DNA of 64,000 nt from Pseudomonadota bacterium. GTDB lineage: Bacteria; Pseudomonadota; Gammaproteobacteria; Ga0077536. The stretch spans positions 591 through 64,590 of the forward strand of contig JAYWAC010000240.1 in assembly GCA_043782755.1 (NCBI GenBank), given 5' to 3'. Shown piece by piece: positions 29,164 to 37,031 of this stretch (positions within the stretch are counted from its first letter, which is position 1; each line of letters starts with the position of its first letter). A program made the translations under genes and the position numbers. The notes below the pieces were generated by a model. That model saw only the letters and a list, made by a program, of their open reading frames with translations. It had not been told where the DNA came from and did no database searches.

Positions 29164-29469
29164 TCATTCGATGTTGAACAGCTGGTCGAAATTGGCGACC
29201 GCGAGAATGTCGCGAATCACTGGTTGGGCGTTGGTCAGACGTACGGCCTGACGCTGGCCGCCGGCATGTTCGCGCAACTGCAACAGCATGCCGAGCGCGG
29301 CGCTGTCCATATAAGTGGTGCCGCGCAGGTCGAGCACGTAGTTGCCAAAGTGCTTGCCGGCGGCTTCATAGGCCTGGCGCAGCTCGCGATGGACGTTGAA
29401 GTCGAAGCGATCCTGAACATGGATGGTCAGGGTCTGGCCGTCGCCAGAGGTCTGGGTGCTGATGCTCAT
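29164..29469 (-). CDS. STAS-domain protein (anti-sigma-factor-antagonist-like), last gene of the che operon
   Basis: Start at MSISTQ (ATG 29469) after GGAG. LDLRGTTYMDSAALGMLLQL is the STAS core and retains the Ser at the SpoIIAA phospho-site position. Confidence 0.7.
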   Translation of the reverse strand: MSISTQTSGDGQTLTIHVQDRFDFNVHRELRQAYEAAGKHFGNYVLDLRGTTYMDSAALGMLLQLREHAGGQRQAVRLTNAQPVIRDILAVANFDQLFNIE

Positions 29470-29534
29470 CTTGAGACTCCGATGCAATATTTTCTGGGAT
29501 ATTCGAACGCTGGCCAGTCAGTGGCGGTGGGCGC

Positions 29535-30716
29535 TCAGAACAATTCGATCTCGCCTTCGACCATGGTCGCTTGATGGGCCGGTTTACGCGGCTGCATCTC
29601 GTGCAGGACATCGGCCGTGAGACGCAATTGCTCAAGGCTGGCGTCGAGGGCCTGCGACGACCAGCGCATAACGCCGGTTTCAACCACATTTTCGAAGCGT
29701 GCCAGCGCTTGCTCGCCGTGCTCGGCGACTTGCCGCGCGATGTCCTCGAATTGCAGCGCGCGCACTGCGCTGTTGGAGCGTTCGGCGATTTGCGCCGCCA
29801 GGCCCGAGGTCTCACCTAGCAGCCCGTGCAAGGACGATTCCAGCGTAGACAGATGCTTCGTCATGCCGTCGATGCTGGACTTGTGAGTGAGCAGCTTGCT
29901 CATGTCCGTTGATGCCGAATCACCGACCAGCTTGCGCGTCGAATGCATGGTGGTCTGCGCGCTTTCAACCTGGGAGCGAATCTGTTCGTTGAAATGCGCG
30001 GAGTTGAGCGACAGCTTGCGCACCTCGTCGGCCACCACCGCGAAGCCACGTCCAGCCTCGCCGGCGCGCGCGGCTTCGATGGCGGCGTTCAAGGCCAGCA
30101 GATTGGTCTGATCGGCGATGCCTTTGACATCGCCCAGCAGTTCGAAAATCTGCGTCATCTGGGTGTTCATGGTGTCGATCATGTTGACGATGTCCATGCC
30201 GCGTTTGCTGGCGACAATGGCGTTGTCGACGAAGCCTTGCAGCACATGGGAGGTGTCGCGCACGAACTTGCTGATGGTGACGTTTTCTTGCGGGTCGTTG
30301 CTGGCGTTTGAATTGGGCGAACCGTTGGCGAGCGTGTGTAGCGCTTTGTCCATCAGCGACTTCTGGGTCTGCGCGTCGGCGTGAAAGCCGTCAAACGAAT
30401 AGCCGAGTGCCGCGACTGCATCGCGAATCAATTCGCGGATCTGCACCATGTCGCCCTGCAGTTGGCGGATCGTCTGGCGCGAGGCGTCATGCAGCAGTTC
30501 GATGCGTTCGGCATGGTGGAGGCTGGCGTCGGATTGTGCAGCCTGTGCGGCGGCACTGCTGGCAAGGGCGTCGCGGCTGCGGCGTTCATCCCACATCCAG
30601 GCCGCCGCCACCGCCAGTAGGCAGATCAGCGCGACCGGAGATTGATCGATCACCATCGTGCAAAGCGCGGCGGTGACGGTGACCAGTCCGGGAATCACGC
30701 GATGGGAGTCGTTCAT
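29535..30716 (-). CDS. methyl-accepting chemotaxis protein without a recognisable sensor domain
   Basis: 393 aa with two closely spaced N-terminal hydrophobic segments. Conserved signalling hairpin [29 protein letters not shown]-terminus GEIELF. Confidence 0.85.
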
Positions 30717-30814
30717 GCGTTGAGATCTCGCGAGCCGTTTTTTTTTCCGTCGCGAAGTACATCGGAAACAGCGAATTTTTCTTTAGGCCAGGTGACCCCG
30801 CGTCAGTGATTTCG

Positions 30815-31876
30815 TCAATTTCGAGTAAGTCGGGAAGCGAGCTCTGCGATTTCATCGAGCGGCACGACATGGTCGGCGGCGCCGAGCTTGACCGCCTCGC
30901 CGGGCATACCCCACACCACGCTGGACGCCTCGTCTTGGCAAATGGTCTTGGCGCCCGCCTTGTGCATGTTGAGCATGCCCTTGGCACCGTCGGCGCCCAT
31001 GCCGGTCAGCAGCACACCGACCGCGTTGGGGCCCAGGTTGCTGGCCACCGCATCGAACAGCACATCGACCGACGGACGGTGACGATTGACCAGTGCGGTG
31101 TCGTGCAGACGGCAGCGATAACGCGCGCCGGCGCGCTCGACCGTAAGGTGACGGTGACCAGGAGCGATGTAGGCATGGCCTTGCAGTAGCGGCTGGCCGT
31201 CCTCGGCCTGACATACCCGCATCGGACTGGACTTGTCCAAGCGCGCTGCGAACGCCGCACTGAAGGCTTGTGGAATGTGCTGGGCAATAACAATAGCCGC
31301 ACTGTCGTGGCTCATGTTTTCCAGCACTTCGCGTATCGCCTCGGTGCCGCCGGTGGAGGCGCCAATGGCGATCAGTGTCGGCGGCATGGCTAGCCCGGCG
31401 ACCGGCTTGGCAACGCTGACTGCTGCTTTGATGGCGGCACGCGCCGGATTGAAGGGACGCAAGCGCGCGCGCGCGACGGCCTTGACCTTGGCGATGATCT
31501 CGCCCGCGTAGTCTTCGAGATGGTGGGACAGATCGAGCTTGGGCTTGGTGACAAAATCGACCGCGCCTATTGCCAGTGCCTGGAAAGTGATATCGGCACC
31601 CTGCTCGGTCAATGATGACACCATCACCACGGGCATCGGCCGCAGCCGCATGAGCTTGGACAGGAAGGTCAGGCCATCCATGCGCGGCATTTCGACATCC
31701 AGGGTCAACACGTCGGGATTGAGCTGTTTGATCATGTCGCGTGCCATGAGTGGATCATGCGCGCTGCCGACCACCTCGATACCGGGATCGGAAGCGAGCA
31801 TCTGACTCATGACTTTGCGCACCAGCGCGGAGTCGTCGATCACCAGCACGCGTATCGGTGTAGCACGCCTATCCAT
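30815..31876 (-). CDS. cheB: chemotaxis response regulator protein-glutamate methylesterase
   Basis: REC domain ([19 protein letters not shown]) plus methylesterase motifs GASTGG, AQHIP and GMGADG. Confidence 0.9.
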
Positions 31877-31888
31877 AGTCTGTGTCGC

Positions 31889-32545
31889 CTAGAACAGTTC
31901 GACCTCGCCGCTCGCCGGCTTGCGTTCGATGTGGGCGCGGTAGCTGCCTTCCTCGGCGATGACGTCACGGCGCTCGGCGGATGCCAGTGGCTTGACCTGC
32001 GCGGCGCCACTCACAGGATGAAAGCGCACTTGGCGGCCGCAGTGACCACCGACATCCTCGCCGGCGATTTGTATACCTTCGTTGGTGAGGTATTCGCGCA
32101 CGAACTGGATATTGCGCTCACCGATATCGCTCGCGATCCGCAGCACGTGTCCGCCGCCGACTATTTTGGCTTTGAGTCGTTCGCGGCGACCACCAGCCTT
32201 GAGAATGGCATTGATCAGATGTTCCATCGCGAACGAGCCGTAGCGCGCCGCGTCACTGCCACCGTCGCCCAGACTGATGTCGGCCAGGCGTCCGTCGCCG
32301 ACCTCGGGCAGCATGAAGTGGTTCATGCCACCGACCTTGAGCAGCGGGTCCCACAGGCAGGCCGATACGCAGGAGCCGAGTGTGGTGGTGATGAATTCGT
32401 TCTCGCCCGTGGCGTAGTACTCGCCCGGCAGGATCTTGGCCACCACCGCACCGAGCTTGGCGTCAAAGCCTTTGCGGATATGCGTGAACTGCGCCGCGAG
32501 TTGGGCCTGGCTCCGCGTCTGTATCGCGTCGCTACTTGTGCTCAT
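31889..32545 (-). CDS. cheD: chemoreceptor glutamine deamidase
   Basis: 218 aa with LGSCVSACLWDP (catalytic Cys context) and KIVGGG. C-terminus GEVELF. Overlaps the cheR stop. Confidence 0.85.
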   Translation of the reverse strand: MSTSSDAIQTRSQAQLAAQFTHIRKGFDAKLGAVVAKILPGEYYATGENEFITTTLGSCVSACLWDPLLKVGGMNHFMLPEVGDGRLADISLGDGGSDAARYGSFAMEHLINAILKAGGRRERLKAKIVGGGHVLRIASDIGERNIQFVREYLTNEGIQIAGEDVGGHCGRQVRFHPVSGAAQVKPLASAERRDVIAEEGSYRAHIERKPASGEVELF

Positions 32546-33408
32546 CTCGCACTCGCTTGCCGATAGGTCGTCCGCCCTATCAGGTCAAAGCGTGTGCAGG
32601 TACCTAACATGGTTTCCGAATGTCCGATGAAAAGATAACCGTGGCGCGCGAGCACGTCGGCATAGCGACCAAACAGGCGGCTCTGGGTCTCTTTGTCGAA
32701 ATAGATCACGACATTGCGACAGAAGATCACATCGAACGGGCCTTTGAACGGCCATTGCTCCATGAGATTCAGCGGTGCGAAGCGAATCATGCCGCGCACT
32801 TCGTCCTTGACACGCAGATTGTCGGCACCACCGCCGGCGTTGGTAAAGAAACGCTTGAGGCGTGCTTCACTAAGACCCTGCTGGCGATTAGTTGGGTAGA
32901 TGCCAGCGGCCGCCGTCGCGACCACATTGGAGTCGATATCGGTGGCGAGAATCTTGACGTCCCAGCCACTGTTATTGCCGAGCGCTTGCCGCAAGGTCAT
33001 GGCGATGCTGTAGGGTTCTTCGCCAGTCGAACAGCCGGCCGACCACACGCGGATGCGACGGCTGGCGGCATTGGTCTTGAGCAGCACGGGCACCACGGTC
33101 TGGGCAAGACATTCGAAATGATGGTGCTCGCGAAAGAACGACGTCAGGTTGGTGGTGATGGCGTTGATGAAGTTCTCGATCTCGGCGTTGTTCTCGTCGC
33201 GCACCAGCGCGCAGTAGGCATCGAAGCCCGACAGGTTCATGGTGCGAATACGGCGCGCCAGGCGGCTATAAACCAGCTGGCGTTTGGTGTCGTTCAGACT
33301 GATGCCGGCATACTTGCCGACCAGTTTGCGCAGCAGTTCGAAATGTCCGTCGGTAAACGTATATTCCTGCGGCGCGTCCAAGGTCTGAGCGATAGCGAGG
33401 GAGGTCAT
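32542..33408 (-). CDS. cheR: chemotaxis protein methyltransferase
   Basis: Start set at MTSLAIAQ (ATG 33408). TSFFREHHHFE and the SAM-binding VWSAGCSTGEEPYSIAM are present. Confidence 0.85.
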   Translation of the reverse strand: MTSLAIAQTLDAPQEYTFTDGHFELLRKLVGKYAGISLNDTKRQLVYSRLARRIRTMNLSGFDAYCALVRDENNAEIENFINAITTNLTSFFREHHHFECLAQTVVPVLLKTNAASRRIRVWSAGCSTGEEPYSIAMTLRQALGNNSGWDVKILATDIDSNVVATAAAGIYPTNRQQGLSEARLKRFFTNAGGGADNLRVKDEVRGMIRFAPLNLMEQWPFKGPFDVIFCRNVVIYFDKETQSRLFGRYADVLARHGYLFIGHSETMLGTCTRFDLIGRTTYRQASAR

Positions 33409-33570
33409 GCTGTCTGTCCTGATCGGTATGGGTTCCGCATCCTGCATTGCACGATGACGACTTGGTCGACGGATCCGTTGGTGCGATCGACGCCGTCGCT
33501 GCGTTAGCACTGTTAGCTGCCGTTGTTCTGTCCCTTGGCTATGTTTATCCGTGGCGCTTGCGACCATGGA

Positions 33571-33900
33571 TCAGTGGGCGTTGAGACCGAGCGGCACGGC
33601 GTAACCGGACACCATGACGGCGTTGGTGAAGGCCGCCGACGGTGTGCGGATCTCAAAGCTGCGGGTCTGGCGGCTACAAACGCCGGCTAGAGCAGCCAGG
33701 TACTGCAGTGCGGCTGCGTCGATGAACTCGACCGCACTGGCGTCGCAAGCCACGTTGGCATGGCTGCCAGCCGCCAGCTGGGCGTCGCATTGCTGTTTGA
33801 ATTCGGCGATATCGCCGATACGCAGTGTTGTACGAAGAGGCATCAGGATCGTGTCGCCGTCGATGTGCGAGCGGGTGTCAGTCGTCATGTCCATTTTCAT
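33571..33900 (-). CDS. STAS-domain protein between cheW and cheR
   Basis: 109 aa. CDASAVEFIDAAALQYLAAL is a STAS core in which the phospho-Ser position is Ala. Confidence 0.6.
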   Translation of the reverse strand: MKMDMTTDTRSHIDGDTILMPLRTTLRIGDIAEFKQQCDAQLAAGSHANVACDASAVEFIDAAALQYLAALAGVCSRQTRSFEIRTPSAAFTNAVMVSGYAVPLGLNAH

Positions 33901-33954
33901 GGGCTGCTTACGTCGGAATCGAAGGAGCTTGCGTGTGGCGCGACGTTCACGATG

Positions 33955-34470
33955 TCAGTGCGCGGTAGCCGTCATGTCGAACTGTTCGGTGCTGAGCAGA
34001 CGATCGATATCGAGCAGAATGATCATCTTCTCCTCGACGGTCGCCAGTGCGCGGATGAAGTCCGTGTCGACGTGGCTACCGAAGTCAGGCGCCGCGCGAA
34101 AGTGGTCGGCCGACACCTTGTAGACATCGGATACCGCGTCGACCACGAAGCCGATGGTGCGCTCCACGCCTTCATTGCGAACCTTGAGCACAATAACGAC
34201 CGTGGTCGCGGTGTACTCGATGGCCGGCAGCGCAAAACGTTGACGCAGATCAATAATCGGCACGATGGCGCCGCGCAGGTTCATCACGCCGCGAATGTAG
34301 TCTGGGGTGTTTGGAATCTTGGTGGCCGGGCTCCAGCCCTTGATCTCCAGCACACGCAGGATGTCCACACCATATTCCTCACCATTCAACATGAAGGTCA
34401 GATACTGGTCCGCGTTGACCACCCCGCCGAGATCGAGATCGGCGACTTGCTTTGCTCTGCTAACTTCCAT
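33955..34470 (-). CDS. cheW: chemotaxis coupling protein
   Basis: 171 aa with QYLTFMLNGEEYGVDILRV and GVMNLRGAIVPIIDLR. Confidence 0.9.
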   Translation of the reverse strand: MEVSRAKQVADLDLGGVVNADQYLTFMLNGEEYGVDILRVLEIKGWSPATKIPNTPDYIRGVMNLRGAIVPIIDLRQRFALPAIEYTATTVVIVLKVRNEGVERTIGFVVDAVSDVYKVSADHFRAAPDFGSHVDTDFIRALATVEEKMIILLDIDRLLSTEQFDMTATAH

Positions 34471-34479
34471 CCTCGCCTC

Positions 34480-36537
34480 CTAGGCAGCCTGGGAATGGTC
34501 TTCAGTGGACGAGCTAGACTGCCGATTGCGGACCAGCTCGATGACGCCGCCGGCGTCGATGATCATGGCGACCGTGCCATCGCCAAGAATAGTGGCGCCG
34601 GAGATGCCGTCGACCTTGCGGTAGTTGGTTTCGAGACTCTTGACCACGACCTGCTGCTGACCGAGCAACTCGTCGACGAAGATGCCGGCGCGGCGACCCT
34701 CGCCCTCGACCACTACCAAGAGGCCCTCTTTGAGCACCGTCGAGTGCGGCTCGATGCCGAACAGTTCGTAGAGGCGGATGATTGGAATGTATTCGCCGCG
34801 CAGGCGGTAGAGTTCGGCACTGCCGGTCACCGACTTGACGCGATCGGGCGTGGCTTGCAGCGATTCGATGATCGAGACCAGCGGCACGATGTAGGTTTGG
34901 TTGCCAACCCGCACCAGTTGTCCATCGAGAATCGCGAGCGTCAGTGGCAAGCGGATACGGATGGTGGTGCCGACCGCGACCGTCGATTCCAGTTCGATGA
35001 TGCCGCCGAGTTCCTTGATGTTGCGGCGGACCACGTCCATGCCGACACCGCGGCCAGACACCGCGCTGATTTCCTTGGCGGTCGAGAAGCCGGGATGGAA
35101 GATGAGGTCGCGAATGGCTTCCTCGGACATCGTTTCCTCGGCGCCGACGATGTTGCGCTCGCGGGCCTTGGCGAGCAGCACGTCGGTGTTGATGCCAGCG
35201 CCGTCATCGACGATTTCGATGACGATGTTGCCGCCTTCATGACGAGCCGCCAGTGACAGCGTGCCGAAGTTCGGCTTGCCGGCCGCCGCGCGCTGTGCGG
35301 GCCTTTCGATACCGTGGTCGAGCGCGTTGCGCACCAGGTGCACCAGCGGGTCGCCGATCTTCTCCAACACGGTCTTATCGAGTTCGGTCTGTTCACCACT
35401 GATCTTGAGTTCCACTTGCTTGCCGAGCTTGGCACTCAAATCCCGCACCAGACGCGGAAAGCGATTGAAAGAGACGCTGATCGGCAGCATGCGGATGCGC
35501 ATCACGCTTTCCTGCAGCTCGCGCGTATTGCGTTCGAGCTGAGCCAGACCTTCGCGCAGCTTGGCGAAATTGCGTGGCTGGGAGTCGTCGTTGAACTGGC
35601 CGAGCATGGATTGCGTGATGACCAATTCGCCGACCAGGTTGATCAGCGAATCCACTTTAGAAATGTCGACGCGGATCGACGCGGCAGCCGTGCTCTGACC
35701 CTCCCCCTGGCGGCGATCAGTCTGGCGCCTGTCATTCCGACGGCGGTCATCGGTTGCCGGCACGGCGCTCAAACCTTCGCTCGCGGCGGTGGTATCGAGC
35801 ATCGCCAGGGTGGTCGGTGGCTCGCGGCTCAGAGTGATCTTGGCGTCGTCTTCGACCCACTCGAACACTTCACGGATGACGGTTTCGTCGACGCTGCCGG
35901 CGAGGGTGATGCGCCATGCCGAGTAGCAGATCTCGGCATCGTAGAGTGCATAGTCGGGGAGGCGCGAGAGGTCTAGCTCAGCGCTGTAGGGGCCGAGGCG
36001 TTGGAGTTCACGCAGGATGCGCACCGGGTCATTGCCGGTGGCGAACAGGTGCGGTTCGGGCGTGAATTCGATATGCCAGGGGTTATTGTTGACATTCCCT
36101 TTAGCCACGACCGCGTCGCCCGTGGCGGCGACACTGTCAGGCGCGGCGCCATGATGCAGTTGCTCCTCGAGCTTGTGGTGCACCTCGGCGACCGCTTGCG
36201 CGTCGAAATCCGTAGCGCTGCGCGCGGCATCAAGCATGGCGCGCAGACTGTCGACCGCCAACAGCAGCACATCGACCGCCTCGCGCGTGACCTGACGGGC
36301 GCCGCTGCGCATTTCGTCGAGCAGGGTTTCCAGGAGGTGGGTGAAATCGCTGATCGCACCGAAGCCGAATGTGCCACTGCCGCCCTTAATGGAGTGGGCG
36401 GCGCGGAAGATGGCGTTGACGGCCTCAATGTCGGGGCGTCCGACTTCGAGGTCGATCAGACCCGCTTCCATGACTTCGAGACCCTCGAAGGACTCCTCGA
36501 AAAAGACCGGGTGAAATTGCGCGATGTCGATGGACAT
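34480..36537 (-). CDS. cheA: chemotaxis histidine kinase
   Basis: 685 aa. Hpt site RAAHSIKGGSGTFG, N-box HLVRNALDHGIE, G1 DDGAGI, G2 GRGVGMDVV and a C-terminal CheW-like domain. Confidence 0.95.
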   Translation of the reverse strand: MSIDIAQFHPVFFEESFEGLEVMEAGLIDLEVGRPDIEAVNAIFRAAHSIKGGSGTFGFGAISDFTHLLETLLDEMRSGARQVTREAVDVLLLAVDSLRAMLDAARSATDFDAQAVAEVHHKLEEQLHHGAAPDSVAATGDAVVAKGNVNNNPWHIEFTPEPHLFATGNDPVRILRELQRLGPYSAELDLSRLPDYALYDAEICYSAWRITLAGSVDETVIREVFEWVEDDAKITLSREPPTTLAMLDTTAASEGLSAVPATDDRRRNDRRQTDRRQGEGQSTAAASIRVDISKVDSLINLVGELVITQSMLGQFNDDSQPRNFAKLREGLAQLERNTRELQESVMRIRMLPISVSFNRFPRLVRDLSAKLGKQVELKISGEQTELDKTVLEKIGDPLVHLVRNALDHGIERPAQRAAAGKPNFGTLSLAARHEGGNIVIEIVDDGAGINTDVLLAKARERNIVGAEETMSEEAIRDLIFHPGFSTAKEISAVSGRGVGMDVVRRNIKELGGIIELESTVAVGTTIRIRLPLTLAILDGQLVRVGNQTYIVPLVSIIESLQATPDRVKSVTGSAELYRLRGEYIPIIRLYELFGIEPHSTVLKEGLLVVVEGEGRRAGIFVDELLGQQQVVVKSLETNYRKVDGISGATILGDGTVAMIIDAGGVIELVRNRQSSSSTEDHSQAA

Positions 36538-36583
36538 GCTGCCTCCCGCAATGAGCCCTGGTGCGGAACGCCGGTGCTCGGCC

Positions 36584-36946
36584 CTAGCCGAGCACCTTGG
36601 CGATGGTCGCCAGCAACTGCTCAGGGTTGAAAGGTTTCACCAGCCAGCCGGTGGCGCCGGCGGCTTTGCCCTGGGCCTTCTTGTCAGCTGCGGATTCAGT
36701 GGTCAGCAACAGCATGGGCGTGAATTTGTACTTCGGCAGCTGGCGCAATTGGCGCACCAGCTCTATGCCATCCATGTTCGGCATGTTCACGTCGGTGAGG
36801 ATCACATCGGCGCCGCCTGATTTGGCTTTTTCGAGCGCATCCTTGCCATCGACCGCCTCGATGACGTTGTAGCCCGCGCCTTTGAGGGTGAATGCGACCA
36901 TTTGGCGCATGGAAGCCGAATCATCGACCGCGAGAATGCTTGCCAT
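36584..36946 (-). CDS. cheY: chemotaxis response regulator
   Basis: 120 aa single REC domain (AVDDS, LTDVNMPNMDG, LLLTTES, LVKPF). AGGAG RBS. Confidence 0.9.
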   Translation of the reverse strand: MASILAVDDSASMRQMVAFTLKGAGYNVIEAVDGKDALEKAKSGGADVILTDVNMPNMDGIELVRQLRQLPKYKFTPMLLLTTESAADKKAQGKAAGATGWLVKPFNPEQLLATIAKVLG

Positions 36947-37003: not shown

Positions 37004-37031
37004 TTAGCGGCAATGAACTTGAAACTCTTGA
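37004..37031 (-). promoter_or_regulatory. sigma-28 (FliA)-like promoter candidate upstream of cheY
   Basis: The minus strand reads TCAAG-N15-GCCGCTAA, about 58 nt upstream of the cheY ATG. The -10 element matches GCCGATAA in 7 of 8 positions. The spacer is 1 to 2 nt longer than consensus spacing as I recall it. Confidence 0.3.

Follow-up and report, generated by a model that had tools for sequence, protein, structure and literature searches.

A probable reduced stage 1 F7 chemosensory operon whose two STAS proteins probably belong to separate modules

The window analyzed here is a stretch of 64,000 nucleotides from a gammaproteobacterial assembly (GCA_043782755.1, contig JAYWAC010000240.1, positions 591 to 64,590). 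Nine of its genes form a chemosensory operon that encodes Che proteins, a chemoreceptor of the methyl-accepting chemotaxis protein (MCP) family and two small STAS-domain proteins, which we call STAS1 (the internal gene) and STAS2 (the last gene). The operon is probably a reduced copy of an ancestral stage 1 F7 cluster in which the two STAS proteins lie in separate modules, STAS1 with the F7 core and STAS2 with an mcpA-like receptor. The window lineage, which is uncultured, has deleted the genes of an Aer2-like receptor of the oxygen type and of a serine phosphatase having receiver (REC) and PP2C domains. No new kind of system is revealed, as the cluster type is already known; what we report below as observed is which genes are present, their homologies, the deletions, the selection acting on the genes and their phyletic distribution.

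The initial annotation of this DNA had described nine same-strand genes in the order cheY-cheA-cheW-STAS1-cheR-cheD-cheB-MCP-STAS2 at 29164-36946. All nine proved to be intact minus-strand open reading frames (ORFs) separated by short gaps or overlaps, and Pfam backed every one of the assignments (Table 1). On one side a convergent gene of the SGL family borders the operon at 23 nt from the stop codon of STAS2; on the other side there is a divergent MetE-like gene, and 427 nt separate it from cheY. Both small ORFs are STAS proteins as had been claimed, with STAS_2 scores above the gathering score of 29.2 bits, and the most likely start of STAS2 gives the length of 101 residues expected for it; the two proteins have no BLAST similarity to each other. 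The residues that had been assigned to the phospho-site, alanine in STAS1 (FIDAAALQ) and serine in STAS2 (YMDSAALG), fall in the same alignment column as the phosphoserine of TM1442, an antagonist of solved structure. The reported absence of a partner-switch kinase or phosphatase from the window also held up, in that whole-genome SpoIIE and HATPase_c_2 scans gave no match on its contig (C240). Likewise, no sigma factor was matched in the window by three sigma-70-family queries, which do not exclude extracytoplasmic function (ECF) sigma factors.

In gammaproteobacteria the oldest ('stage 1') F7 clusters have the order STAS-cheY-cheA-cheW-cheW-aer2-cheR-cheD-cheB-mcpA-STAS-Ser phosphatase, and the function of stage 1 and stage 2 F7 systems is described as unclear (Ortega et al. 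2020, PMC7184735). The window operon has the cheY, cheA, cheW, cheR, cheD and cheB core together (Pfam and NCBIfam) and two STAS genes, one of which follows an mcpA-like receptor gene, and it is syntenic with aer2-bearing clusters. It lacks an Aer2-like (PAS/HAMP, 36H) receptor, and its second STAS gene is not followed by one for a REC-PP2C serine phosphatase. CheA aligns end-to-end with the E. coli-type model PRK10547 (positions 1-666 of 670) at 644 bits, the equivalog cut-off being 793, which is consistent with class F7; CheW and CheR likewise match E. coli-type models (NCBIfam). As in the stage 1 systems of V. cholerae (cluster III) and Methylomicrobium alcaliphilum, the second STAS protein is of another family than the first and there is a separate F6 flagellar system. 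The latter is seen in this fragmented assembly as a cheA-motA-motB-like ... cheW-DUF2802 locus on C87, where the second CheA (beside motCD) is of the F6 type, and as a sigma factor gene adjoining cheY on C76. The window departs from the stage 1 arrangement in that the first STAS gene lies between cheW and cheR rather than 5' of cheY, in having only one cheW, and in the deletion of the aer2-like receptor and serine phosphatase genes, which sister genomes keep.

A resemblance to the Pseudomonas che2 and Vibrio cluster III arrangements had been pointed out from the start, and both are indeed F7 systems of stage 1 or 2. The stage 2 Che2 cluster of P. aeruginosa (mcpA, cheY2, cheA2, cheW2, aer2/mcpB, cheR2, cheD, cheB2) shares with the window the cheY-A-W-x-R-D-B order, including cheD, and a cluster-linked mcpA-like receptor. 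Both organisms also have a receptor of the Aer2 class whose C-terminus is an xWxxF tether; in the window genome this receptor is an orphan on C1. The Che2 cluster is not known to have a STAS gene, and in it aer2 keeps the slot that STAS1 takes in the window. Two statements of the initial annotation did not survive. It regarded the architecture as uncharacterized, whereas stage 1 F7 clusters have been described as marked by a pair of anti-sigma-factor antagonists together with a serine phosphatase (PMC7184735), and it was aware of no characterized example, whereas STAS2 falls in the characterized CrsA/HsbA family (PMC6482189, PMC9855816). Its combined view, that there is neither a characterized example nor a partner switch, stands insofar as the enzyme gene is absent here and fails insofar as the cluster type is known and the enzyme is present in sister genomes.

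The deletions emerged from comparison with related loci, which were reached by way of STAS1 and STAS2 homologues, the comparison genomes being of metagenome-assembled genome (MAG) quality. Loci L025 and L027 have the order cheY-cheA-cheW-aer2-STAS1-cheR-cheD-cheB-MCP-STAS2-REC/SpoIIE, and by this comparison the window is their arrangement minus aer2 and minus REC-PP2C. L017 has the same order with a second cheW after STAS1, followed by the convergent SGL gene. The single window cheW stands where these three loci have their first cheW (cheA-cheW-aer2) and is separated from STAS1 by only 54 nt. The order in L019, L020 and L026 is cheA-aer2-STAS1-cheW-cheR and onward. L014-L016 have the window's flanking genes and the order cheY-cheA-STAS1-cheW-cheR-cheD-cheB-MCP-STAS2, with neither aer2 nor PP2C, and a more distant member of the same family (L028, genome G012) has the window's exact order plus a REC-SpoIIE-HATPase_c_2 gene. 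The record that contains L025 (CAMCBY010000005.1) is labeled as a MAG of Klebsiella pneumoniae, which looks wrong, since between its che genes and those of this uncultured genus the identity is 80-98%. The genus-level ancestor would have had the order cheY-cheA-cheW-aer2-STAS1-(cheW)-cheR-cheD-cheB-mcpA-like MCP-STAS2-REC/PP2C(/kinase).

STAS2 was found in nine of the 11 genus genomes, the two others being 80% and 87% complete. Five of these nine (G002, G003, G004, G005 and G008) have the full set of F7 CheA, STAS1, cluster Aer2, STAS2 and a cluster REC-PP2C enzyme (64-76% identical), and G010 has all of these except the REC-PP2C. The window genome (G000) and L014 have F7 CheA, STAS1 and STAS2 and lack both cluster Aer2 and REC-PP2C. 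In the fragmented MAG G001 only cheR-STAS2 is left between the MetE-like and SGL genes (L036, G001:C803), with no F7 CheA, STAS1, Aer2 or REC-PP2C. The single-contig genome G009 has no F7 CheA, STAS1 or Aer2; its syntenic MetE-like/SGL locus holds a lone REC-PP2C-HATPase_c_2 gene, a homologue at 49% identity, and an isolated MCP-STAS2 pair lies 570 kb away in an unrelated neighborhood (L035/L039). Because sister genomes carry REC-PP2C(-kinase) directly after STAS2, the absence of the enzyme from the window is a recent deletion and not the original design. Deletion of both genes is also supported by the short gaps at the two sites (54 nt between cheW and STAS1, 23 nt between STAS2 and SGL). The window's own assembly contains no orthologue of the cluster REC-PP2C, for which the closest PP2C protein reaches 32% identity, and none of the cluster aer2, the best match being to the signaling half only, at 58% identity.

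A protein-level tree of CheR, CheD and CheB left the genus unresolved, and a DNA tree to which cheA and the MCP gene were added (cheA+cheR+cheD+cheB+MCP, 5,835 columns) resolved it. There the window groups with the aer2-bearing L017, L025 and L027, and L014 joins the aer2-bearing L019/20 with support of 100/100. A single ancestral loss common to the window and L014 was rejected, in that the approximately unbiased (AU) test rejects such a clade (delta lnL 203, p = 0.0001); hence, the aer2 losses in the window and L014 are independent. PP2C was lost at least two times, because G010, which is L019/20-like and retains aer2, also ends with MCP-STAS2 followed by SGL. We also considered the shared absence of Aer2 and REC-PP2C as a sign of coupling, and discarded it because in G010 aer2 is kept without PP2C, so that the losses were separate events.

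The gene that persists through this series is STAS2, which is kept in G010, in G001 and in G009, and in all 10 loci with an MCP gene, the isolated G009 pair included, the MCP gene is directly followed by STAS2. STAS2 is 93-96% identical between the window and its relatives and 89-99% identical genus-wide, with G009 as an outlier at 77-80%. Its ratio of nonsynonymous to synonymous substitution rates (dN/dS) is 0.02-0.05, second only to CheY, and is 0.04 even between two PP2C-less lineages. As the cluster REC-PP2C enzyme is only 64-76% identical among relatives, this suggests that STAS2 binds a partner more conserved than the enzyme.

STAS2 is predicted to be an HsbA/CrsA-type anti-sigma-factor antagonist. 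As in CrsR-CrsA and HsbR-HsbA (the HptB pathway), it is a single STAS domain of ~100 residues with a serine in a DS(A/S)(A/G)LG motif, and it is 41% identical to a protein named HsbA by the Joint Genome Institute (JGI). The serine, Ser56, lies in YMDSAALG, aligned to YMDSAGLG of TM1442, and within the TTYMDSAALGMLL motif shared with those systems; the HsbA phospho-site is also Ser56. The YMDSAALGMLLQLR of STAS2 is invariant in 11 relatives. In the che1 locus of Shewanella oneidensis (stage 2) the CrsA antagonist and the REC-PP2C-kinase CrsR form a partner switch that controls RpoS (PMC9855816, PMC6482189), and in P. aeruginosa the homologous pair, HsbA and HsbR, acts on FlgM/FliA or on RpoS/HsbD depending on whether HsbA Ser56 is phosphorylated (PMC6482189). 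The window genome resembles these organisms in having RpoS and FlgM, together with a FliA-like sigma factor, and in having an HsbR-like enzyme beside a hybrid kinase with an Hpt domain. Unlike them, it has no cognate REC-PP2C-kinase gene adjoining STAS2, which leaves as candidates only an orphan paralogue, 32% identical to that enzyme, and a GAF-PP2C-kinase with a STAS protein of its own. A REC-PP2C enzyme gene adjoins the STAS2 orthologue in L017, L025, L027, L028-L030, G002-G005 and G008, and in L028-L030 it lies directly downstream and has the REC-PP2C-HATPase_c_2 architecture of CrsR and HsbR.

All of the binding partners and phosphorylation steps that we propose for the two STAS proteins we infer from sequence comparisons. 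STAS2 and the sensor-less mcpA-like receptor would be one unit, and the adjacent REC-PP2C-kinase would normally set the phosphorylation of Ser56. STAS2 would then relay its state to a very conserved partner, which may be FlgM or sigma-28, as for HsbA; alternative partners would be a kinase/anti-sigma domain that holds RpoS, as for CrsA, or the mcpA-like receptor itself. In the window lineage either an HsbR-like enzyme encoded on C35 would service STAS2 or STAS2 would act mostly unphosphorylated.

The C35 enzyme came from the whole-genome HATPase_c_2 scan, which found only two RsbW-type kinase domains in the window's genome. One, on C10, belongs to the GAF-PP2C-kinase with its own adjacent STAS. 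The other belongs to the orphan REC-SpoIIE-HATPase_c_2 protein of 580 aa on C35 (L011:3851-5593, minus strand), the gene of which is divergent from that of a PAS-HisKA-HATPase-REC-REC-Hpt hybrid kinase, the layout of HsbR/HptB. The C35 enzyme has no STAS of its own, since the neighboring STAS is MlaB of an mla operon, and its counterpart in G008 (83% conserved) again has no adjacent STAS. We considered and rejected that it is the relocated cognate gene, as it is 32% identical to the cluster enzyme compared with 70-98% for the other che proteins, and as G002-G005 and G008 have the paralogue and the cluster enzyme side by side in one genome. On these comparisons it is the best candidate to act on STAS2. 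A STAS gene on C160 and its neighbors gave no informative family matches.

A somewhat different role, which we think possible but unlikely, is that STAS2, constitutively unphosphorylated and needing neither kinase nor phosphatase, binds the mcpA-like receptor or FlgM as a stoichiometric ligand; sigma-28-dependent transcription and not a partner switch would then set how much of it there is. The cognate enzyme was lost at least two times while STAS2 remained 93-99% identical, the MCP-STAS2 adjacency is kept in all 10 loci with an MCP gene, a conserved sigma-28-like block lies upstream of cheY, and in P. aeruginosa unphosphorylated HsbA binds FlgM (PMC6482189). According to a proposal of Mo et al. 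(2022), a chemoreceptor may be acted on by a REC-PP2C-kinase via the STAS target of the latter (PMC9239204). However, Ser56 and YMDSAALG are invariant in the PP2C-less lineages, which fits phosphorylation although it could be structural, and an enzyme is retained both in G009 (the REC-PP2C-HATPase elsewhere in that genome) and in the window genome (the orphan HsbR-like protein).

The operon receptor has a membrane hairpin and no sensor domain, with the tip motif at residue 218. Its arms extend ~154 residues around the tip compared with ~126 in Aer2-class receptors, and from these lengths we judge it to be an mcpA-like receptor of ~44 heptads (44H). In S. oneidensis Aer2 serves F7, and McpA clusters with the F6 kinase. 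A further possibility, to which we give little weight, is that the sensor-less receptor obtains its input from STAS2 bound to its cytoplasmic hairpin and thereby feeds the partner-switch state into the F6 array, the receptor and STAS2 being a self-sufficient two-gene module and STAS1 a structural subunit apart from it, independent of phosphorylation and specific to the F7 array. If so, the receptor-STAS2 module would survive loss of the kinase/phosphatase and even of the whole F7 core, and the binding of STAS2 to the hairpin could be phosphorylation-dependent or simply dose-dependent.

For the F7 kinase, input would come from the orphan Aer2-class receptor on C1 (L023:5802-8570, minus strand), a 922-aa protein with 4HB_MCP, HAMP_2 and MCPsignal domains. 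It aligns without gaps to the Aer2 signaling domain of the relatives (58% identical in the signaling half) and ends in VWNQF, a pentapeptide of the CheR-tether type. Orthologues are present in sister genomes too. Now that aer2 has been lost, this orphan is the receptor that most likely feeds the F7 kinase. The genome has four MCP genes, and one of these (C111:3493-3942) has an in-frame TGA inside the open frame around the MCPsignal match and may be a pseudogene.

The distribution of STAS1 differs from that of STAS2: it is present in all seven genus genomes that have F7 CheA and in neither of the two that lack it. An exhaustive HMMER search with a STAS1 profile returned a tight family (~27 close members) and then a long tail of weak matches. 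The profile matched 36 others of 400 genomes that evenly sample the class, and all 11 of the loci examined were F7-like che clusters in which the STAS gene lies directly 5' of cheY-cheA or between aer2 and cheR. In the distant matches L031, L032 and L040 the context is again aer2-STAS-(x)-cheR-cheD. The hidden Markov model (HMM) alignment gives the family signature (V/I)D(A/T)xx(L/M)Q ... PS..(F/L) ... LGL. Judged by this distribution, STAS1 is inherited together with the F7 core and represents an F7-specific STAS family. Given the shared signature and the profile matches 5' of cheY, STAS1 corresponds to the first antagonist of the stage 1 F7 clusters, placed at another position. We found no characterization of the family in the literature, and a tblastn search of a plasmid collection with STAS1, which sought annotated CheS-like genes, gave no match.

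STAS1 lacks the conserved Ser/Thr acceptor that SpoIIAA and RsbV have where helix 2 starts, having alanine on the serine column of TM1442, and VEFIDAAALQ is invariant in the 20 STAS1 homologues aligned (19 of them in alignment A1). The invariant alanine argues that STAS1 is not a phospho-switch in the window's clade. In the wider family the residue at this site is alanine (10), threonine (5) or isoleucine (1). An AlphaFold2 (AF2) model (pLDDT 80) has the canonical fold of SpoIIAA/TM1442-type STAS proteins, with TM scores of 0.74-0.76. STAS1 is also the fastest-evolving gene of the operon (58-66% identity, dN/dS 0.17-0.39).

We propose that STAS1 would bind, without regard to phosphorylation, to the machinery that CheA, CheW, receptor and CheR form in F7, as one of its subunits or as an adaptor, comparable to CheS. 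The latter is a STAS-only protein of the Sinorhizobium meliloti che operon that binds CheA and strengthens CheY1 binding (PMC12654446). CheS (of S. meliloti and Agrobacterium fabrum) resembles STAS1 in its small size, in having STAS as its only domain, in being encoded within a che operon and in a role without a sigma factor. We take CheS to come from alphaproteobacterial clusters of class F5. STAS1 could be strictly of the CheS type, binding the P2/linker region of CheA and so altering how CheY docks and is dephosphorylated, instead of forming a structural part of the array or of the adaptation system; besides the CheS precedent, the way in which STAS1 tracks the F7 core and the position of the family directly 5' of cheY-cheA in many genomes favor this. 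The operon has a single CheY, however, and thus no phosphate-sink pair, whereas the CheS system has two CheY proteins (a sink). Moreover, it is aer2 and cheR, not cheY/cheA, that adjoin the gene in the clade of the window and in several further ones. CheS belongs to another che class and has another gene position, and its likeness to STAS1 is one of description and not of sequence comparison. We consider this strict form of the idea improbable.

A partner of another kind was suggested by L029:3452-5777 and L030:3847-5848, more distant F7 clusters where three genes lie between that of a globin-coupled Aer2-like receptor and cheR. They encode a ParA/MinD-like ATPase, a STAS protein of 202-325 aa in which the N-terminal peptide is basic and a repeat region acidic, and a coiled-coil-like protein of 190 aa; the three may act together in positioning the array. 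From these two loci, with their long STAS protein of basic N-terminus, and from the basic N-termini of several distant homologues came the thought that STAS1 partners a ParA-like ATPase of this function. The idea is a weak one, as L032 and L040 have no ParA-like gene and the N-terminus of the window STAS1 is acidic.

The series of losses could also mean that the operon is a decaying relic, Aer2 and the output enzyme having gone, F7 being on its way out and both STAS proteins being leftovers without function. The reduction is stepwise within the genus, from G010 (no PP2C) through L014 and the window (neither PP2C nor aer2) to G001 (cheR-STAS2) and G009 (no F7 core), and of the genome's mere four MCP genes one has an internal stop. 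Nevertheless, all nine ORFs are intact, the candidate promoter block is conserved and an Aer2-class receptor with a CheR-tether pentapeptide is encoded elsewhere. The window-relative dN/dS is 0.01-0.19 for every gene, STAS1 versus L014 being at 0.33, and the STAS2 value between the two PP2C-less lineages was obtained at a dS of 0.5-1.3. Such low ratios at this divergence indicate long-continued purifying selection, which argues against a relic, and we regard decay as very unlikely.

The single CheY, unlike the pair of the CheS system, weighs against our reading of a reduced F7 cluster with two STAS modules as well, and some further points do the same. The labels F7, 36H and 44H are assignments by E. 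coli-model alignment, lengths and synteny. The window's genome is 93.9% complete in 345 contigs, and an orthologue of aer2 or PP2C that has moved could lie in the part that is missing. The two-gene remnant of G001 comes from a fragmented MAG with 7% contamination and needs confirming. Finally, identity between the C35 enzyme and the cluster enzyme is a mere 32%, and since the former stands beside the cluster enzyme in genomes with the full cluster, it has a job of its own and may not act on STAS2.

Table 1 Coordinates of the operon genes and of the candidate promoter in the window
Feature	Coordinates	Strand	Product or description	Support
Promoter (candidate, sigma-28 (FliA)-type)	37004..37031	-	TCAAG-N15-GCCGCTAA	~58 nt upstream of cheY
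cheY	36584..36946	-	120 aa, single receiver domain	Pfam Response_reg 97.6 bits
cheA	34480..36537	-	685 aa; Hpt, dimerization, HATPase and CheW-like domains	four Pfam domains
cheW	33955..34470	-	171 aa	Pfam CheW 127 bits
STAS1	33571..33900	-	103-109 aa by start, Ala at phospho-site	Pfam STAS_2 47.4 bits
cheR	32542..33408	-	288 aa; ORF open up to 33567	Pfam CheR + CheR_N
cheD	31889..32545	-	218 aa, C-terminus GEVELF	Pfam CheD; PRK13487 223.1 bits vs cut-off 223
cheB	30815..31876	-	353 aa, receiver + methylesterase	Pfam CheB_methylest 216.6 bits + Response_reg
MCP	29535..30716	-	mcpA-like chemoreceptor, 393 aa, ends GEIELF	Pfam MCPsignal 97.7 bits
STAS2	29164..29469	-	101 aa, Ser56 (ORF open to 29487, 107 aa)	STAS_2 54.6, STAS 41.8, ant_ant_sig 50.8 bits

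Among the remaining genes (Table 1), cheY is under the strongest constraint in the operon (98% identical to relatives, dN/dS 0.01-0.02). The CheR proteins of the relatives (288 aa) align from the Met at 33408, and the Arg-rich first 53 codons of the cheR ORF (33409-33567) are probably not translated; a start at 33408 leaves ~160 nt between STAS1 and cheR. In the diverged regions upstream of cheY (the window, L014, L015, L025 and L027) the only strong conservation is a T(C/A)AAG-N15-GCCGCTAA block and the ribosome-binding region. The spacer of this block is ~1 nt longer than that of the sigma-28 consensus. The block looks like a promoter and transcription of the operon looks sigma-28-dependent, which would place the operon, STAS2 included, in the late flagellar regulon and would fit an HsbA-like link to FlgM.

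The C-termini of CheD (GEVELF, 31889-31909) and of the mcpA-like MCP (GEIELF, 29535-29555) share the motif G(E/D)(I/V)(E/D)(L/M)F, which for CheD takes the form G(E/D)(I/V)E(L/M)F. It recurs in distant F7 clusters, in both proteins in L028, L029 and L030 and in CheD in L031 and L032. The G009 MCP is without it, and only G009 has lost the F7 cheR, cheD and cheB genes. The motif may serve to tether one of the F7 adaptation enzymes and would be distinct from the xWxxF pentapeptide of Aer2-class receptors.

What is new is a reduced variant of the cluster and a natural deletion series at one syntenic locus (full; minus PP2C; minus PP2C and Aer2; cheR-STAS2 only; MCP-STAS2 only with PP2C elsewhere) by which STAS1 and STAS2 can be placed in modules of their own. 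STAS2 is the most indispensable piece, the most conserved after CheY, and stays with the sensor-less receptor, whereas STAS1 is an accessory of the F7 core that would not be phosphorylatable in this clade. The analysis also gives a sequence definition of the F7-specific STAS family, the signature D(A/T)xxLQ ... PS..F ... LGL being usable for its annotation. The purpose and output of the ancestral (stage 1/2) F7 systems are still called unclear (PMC7184735), and for two proteins so far merely listed in gene-order diagrams there are now concrete candidate partners.

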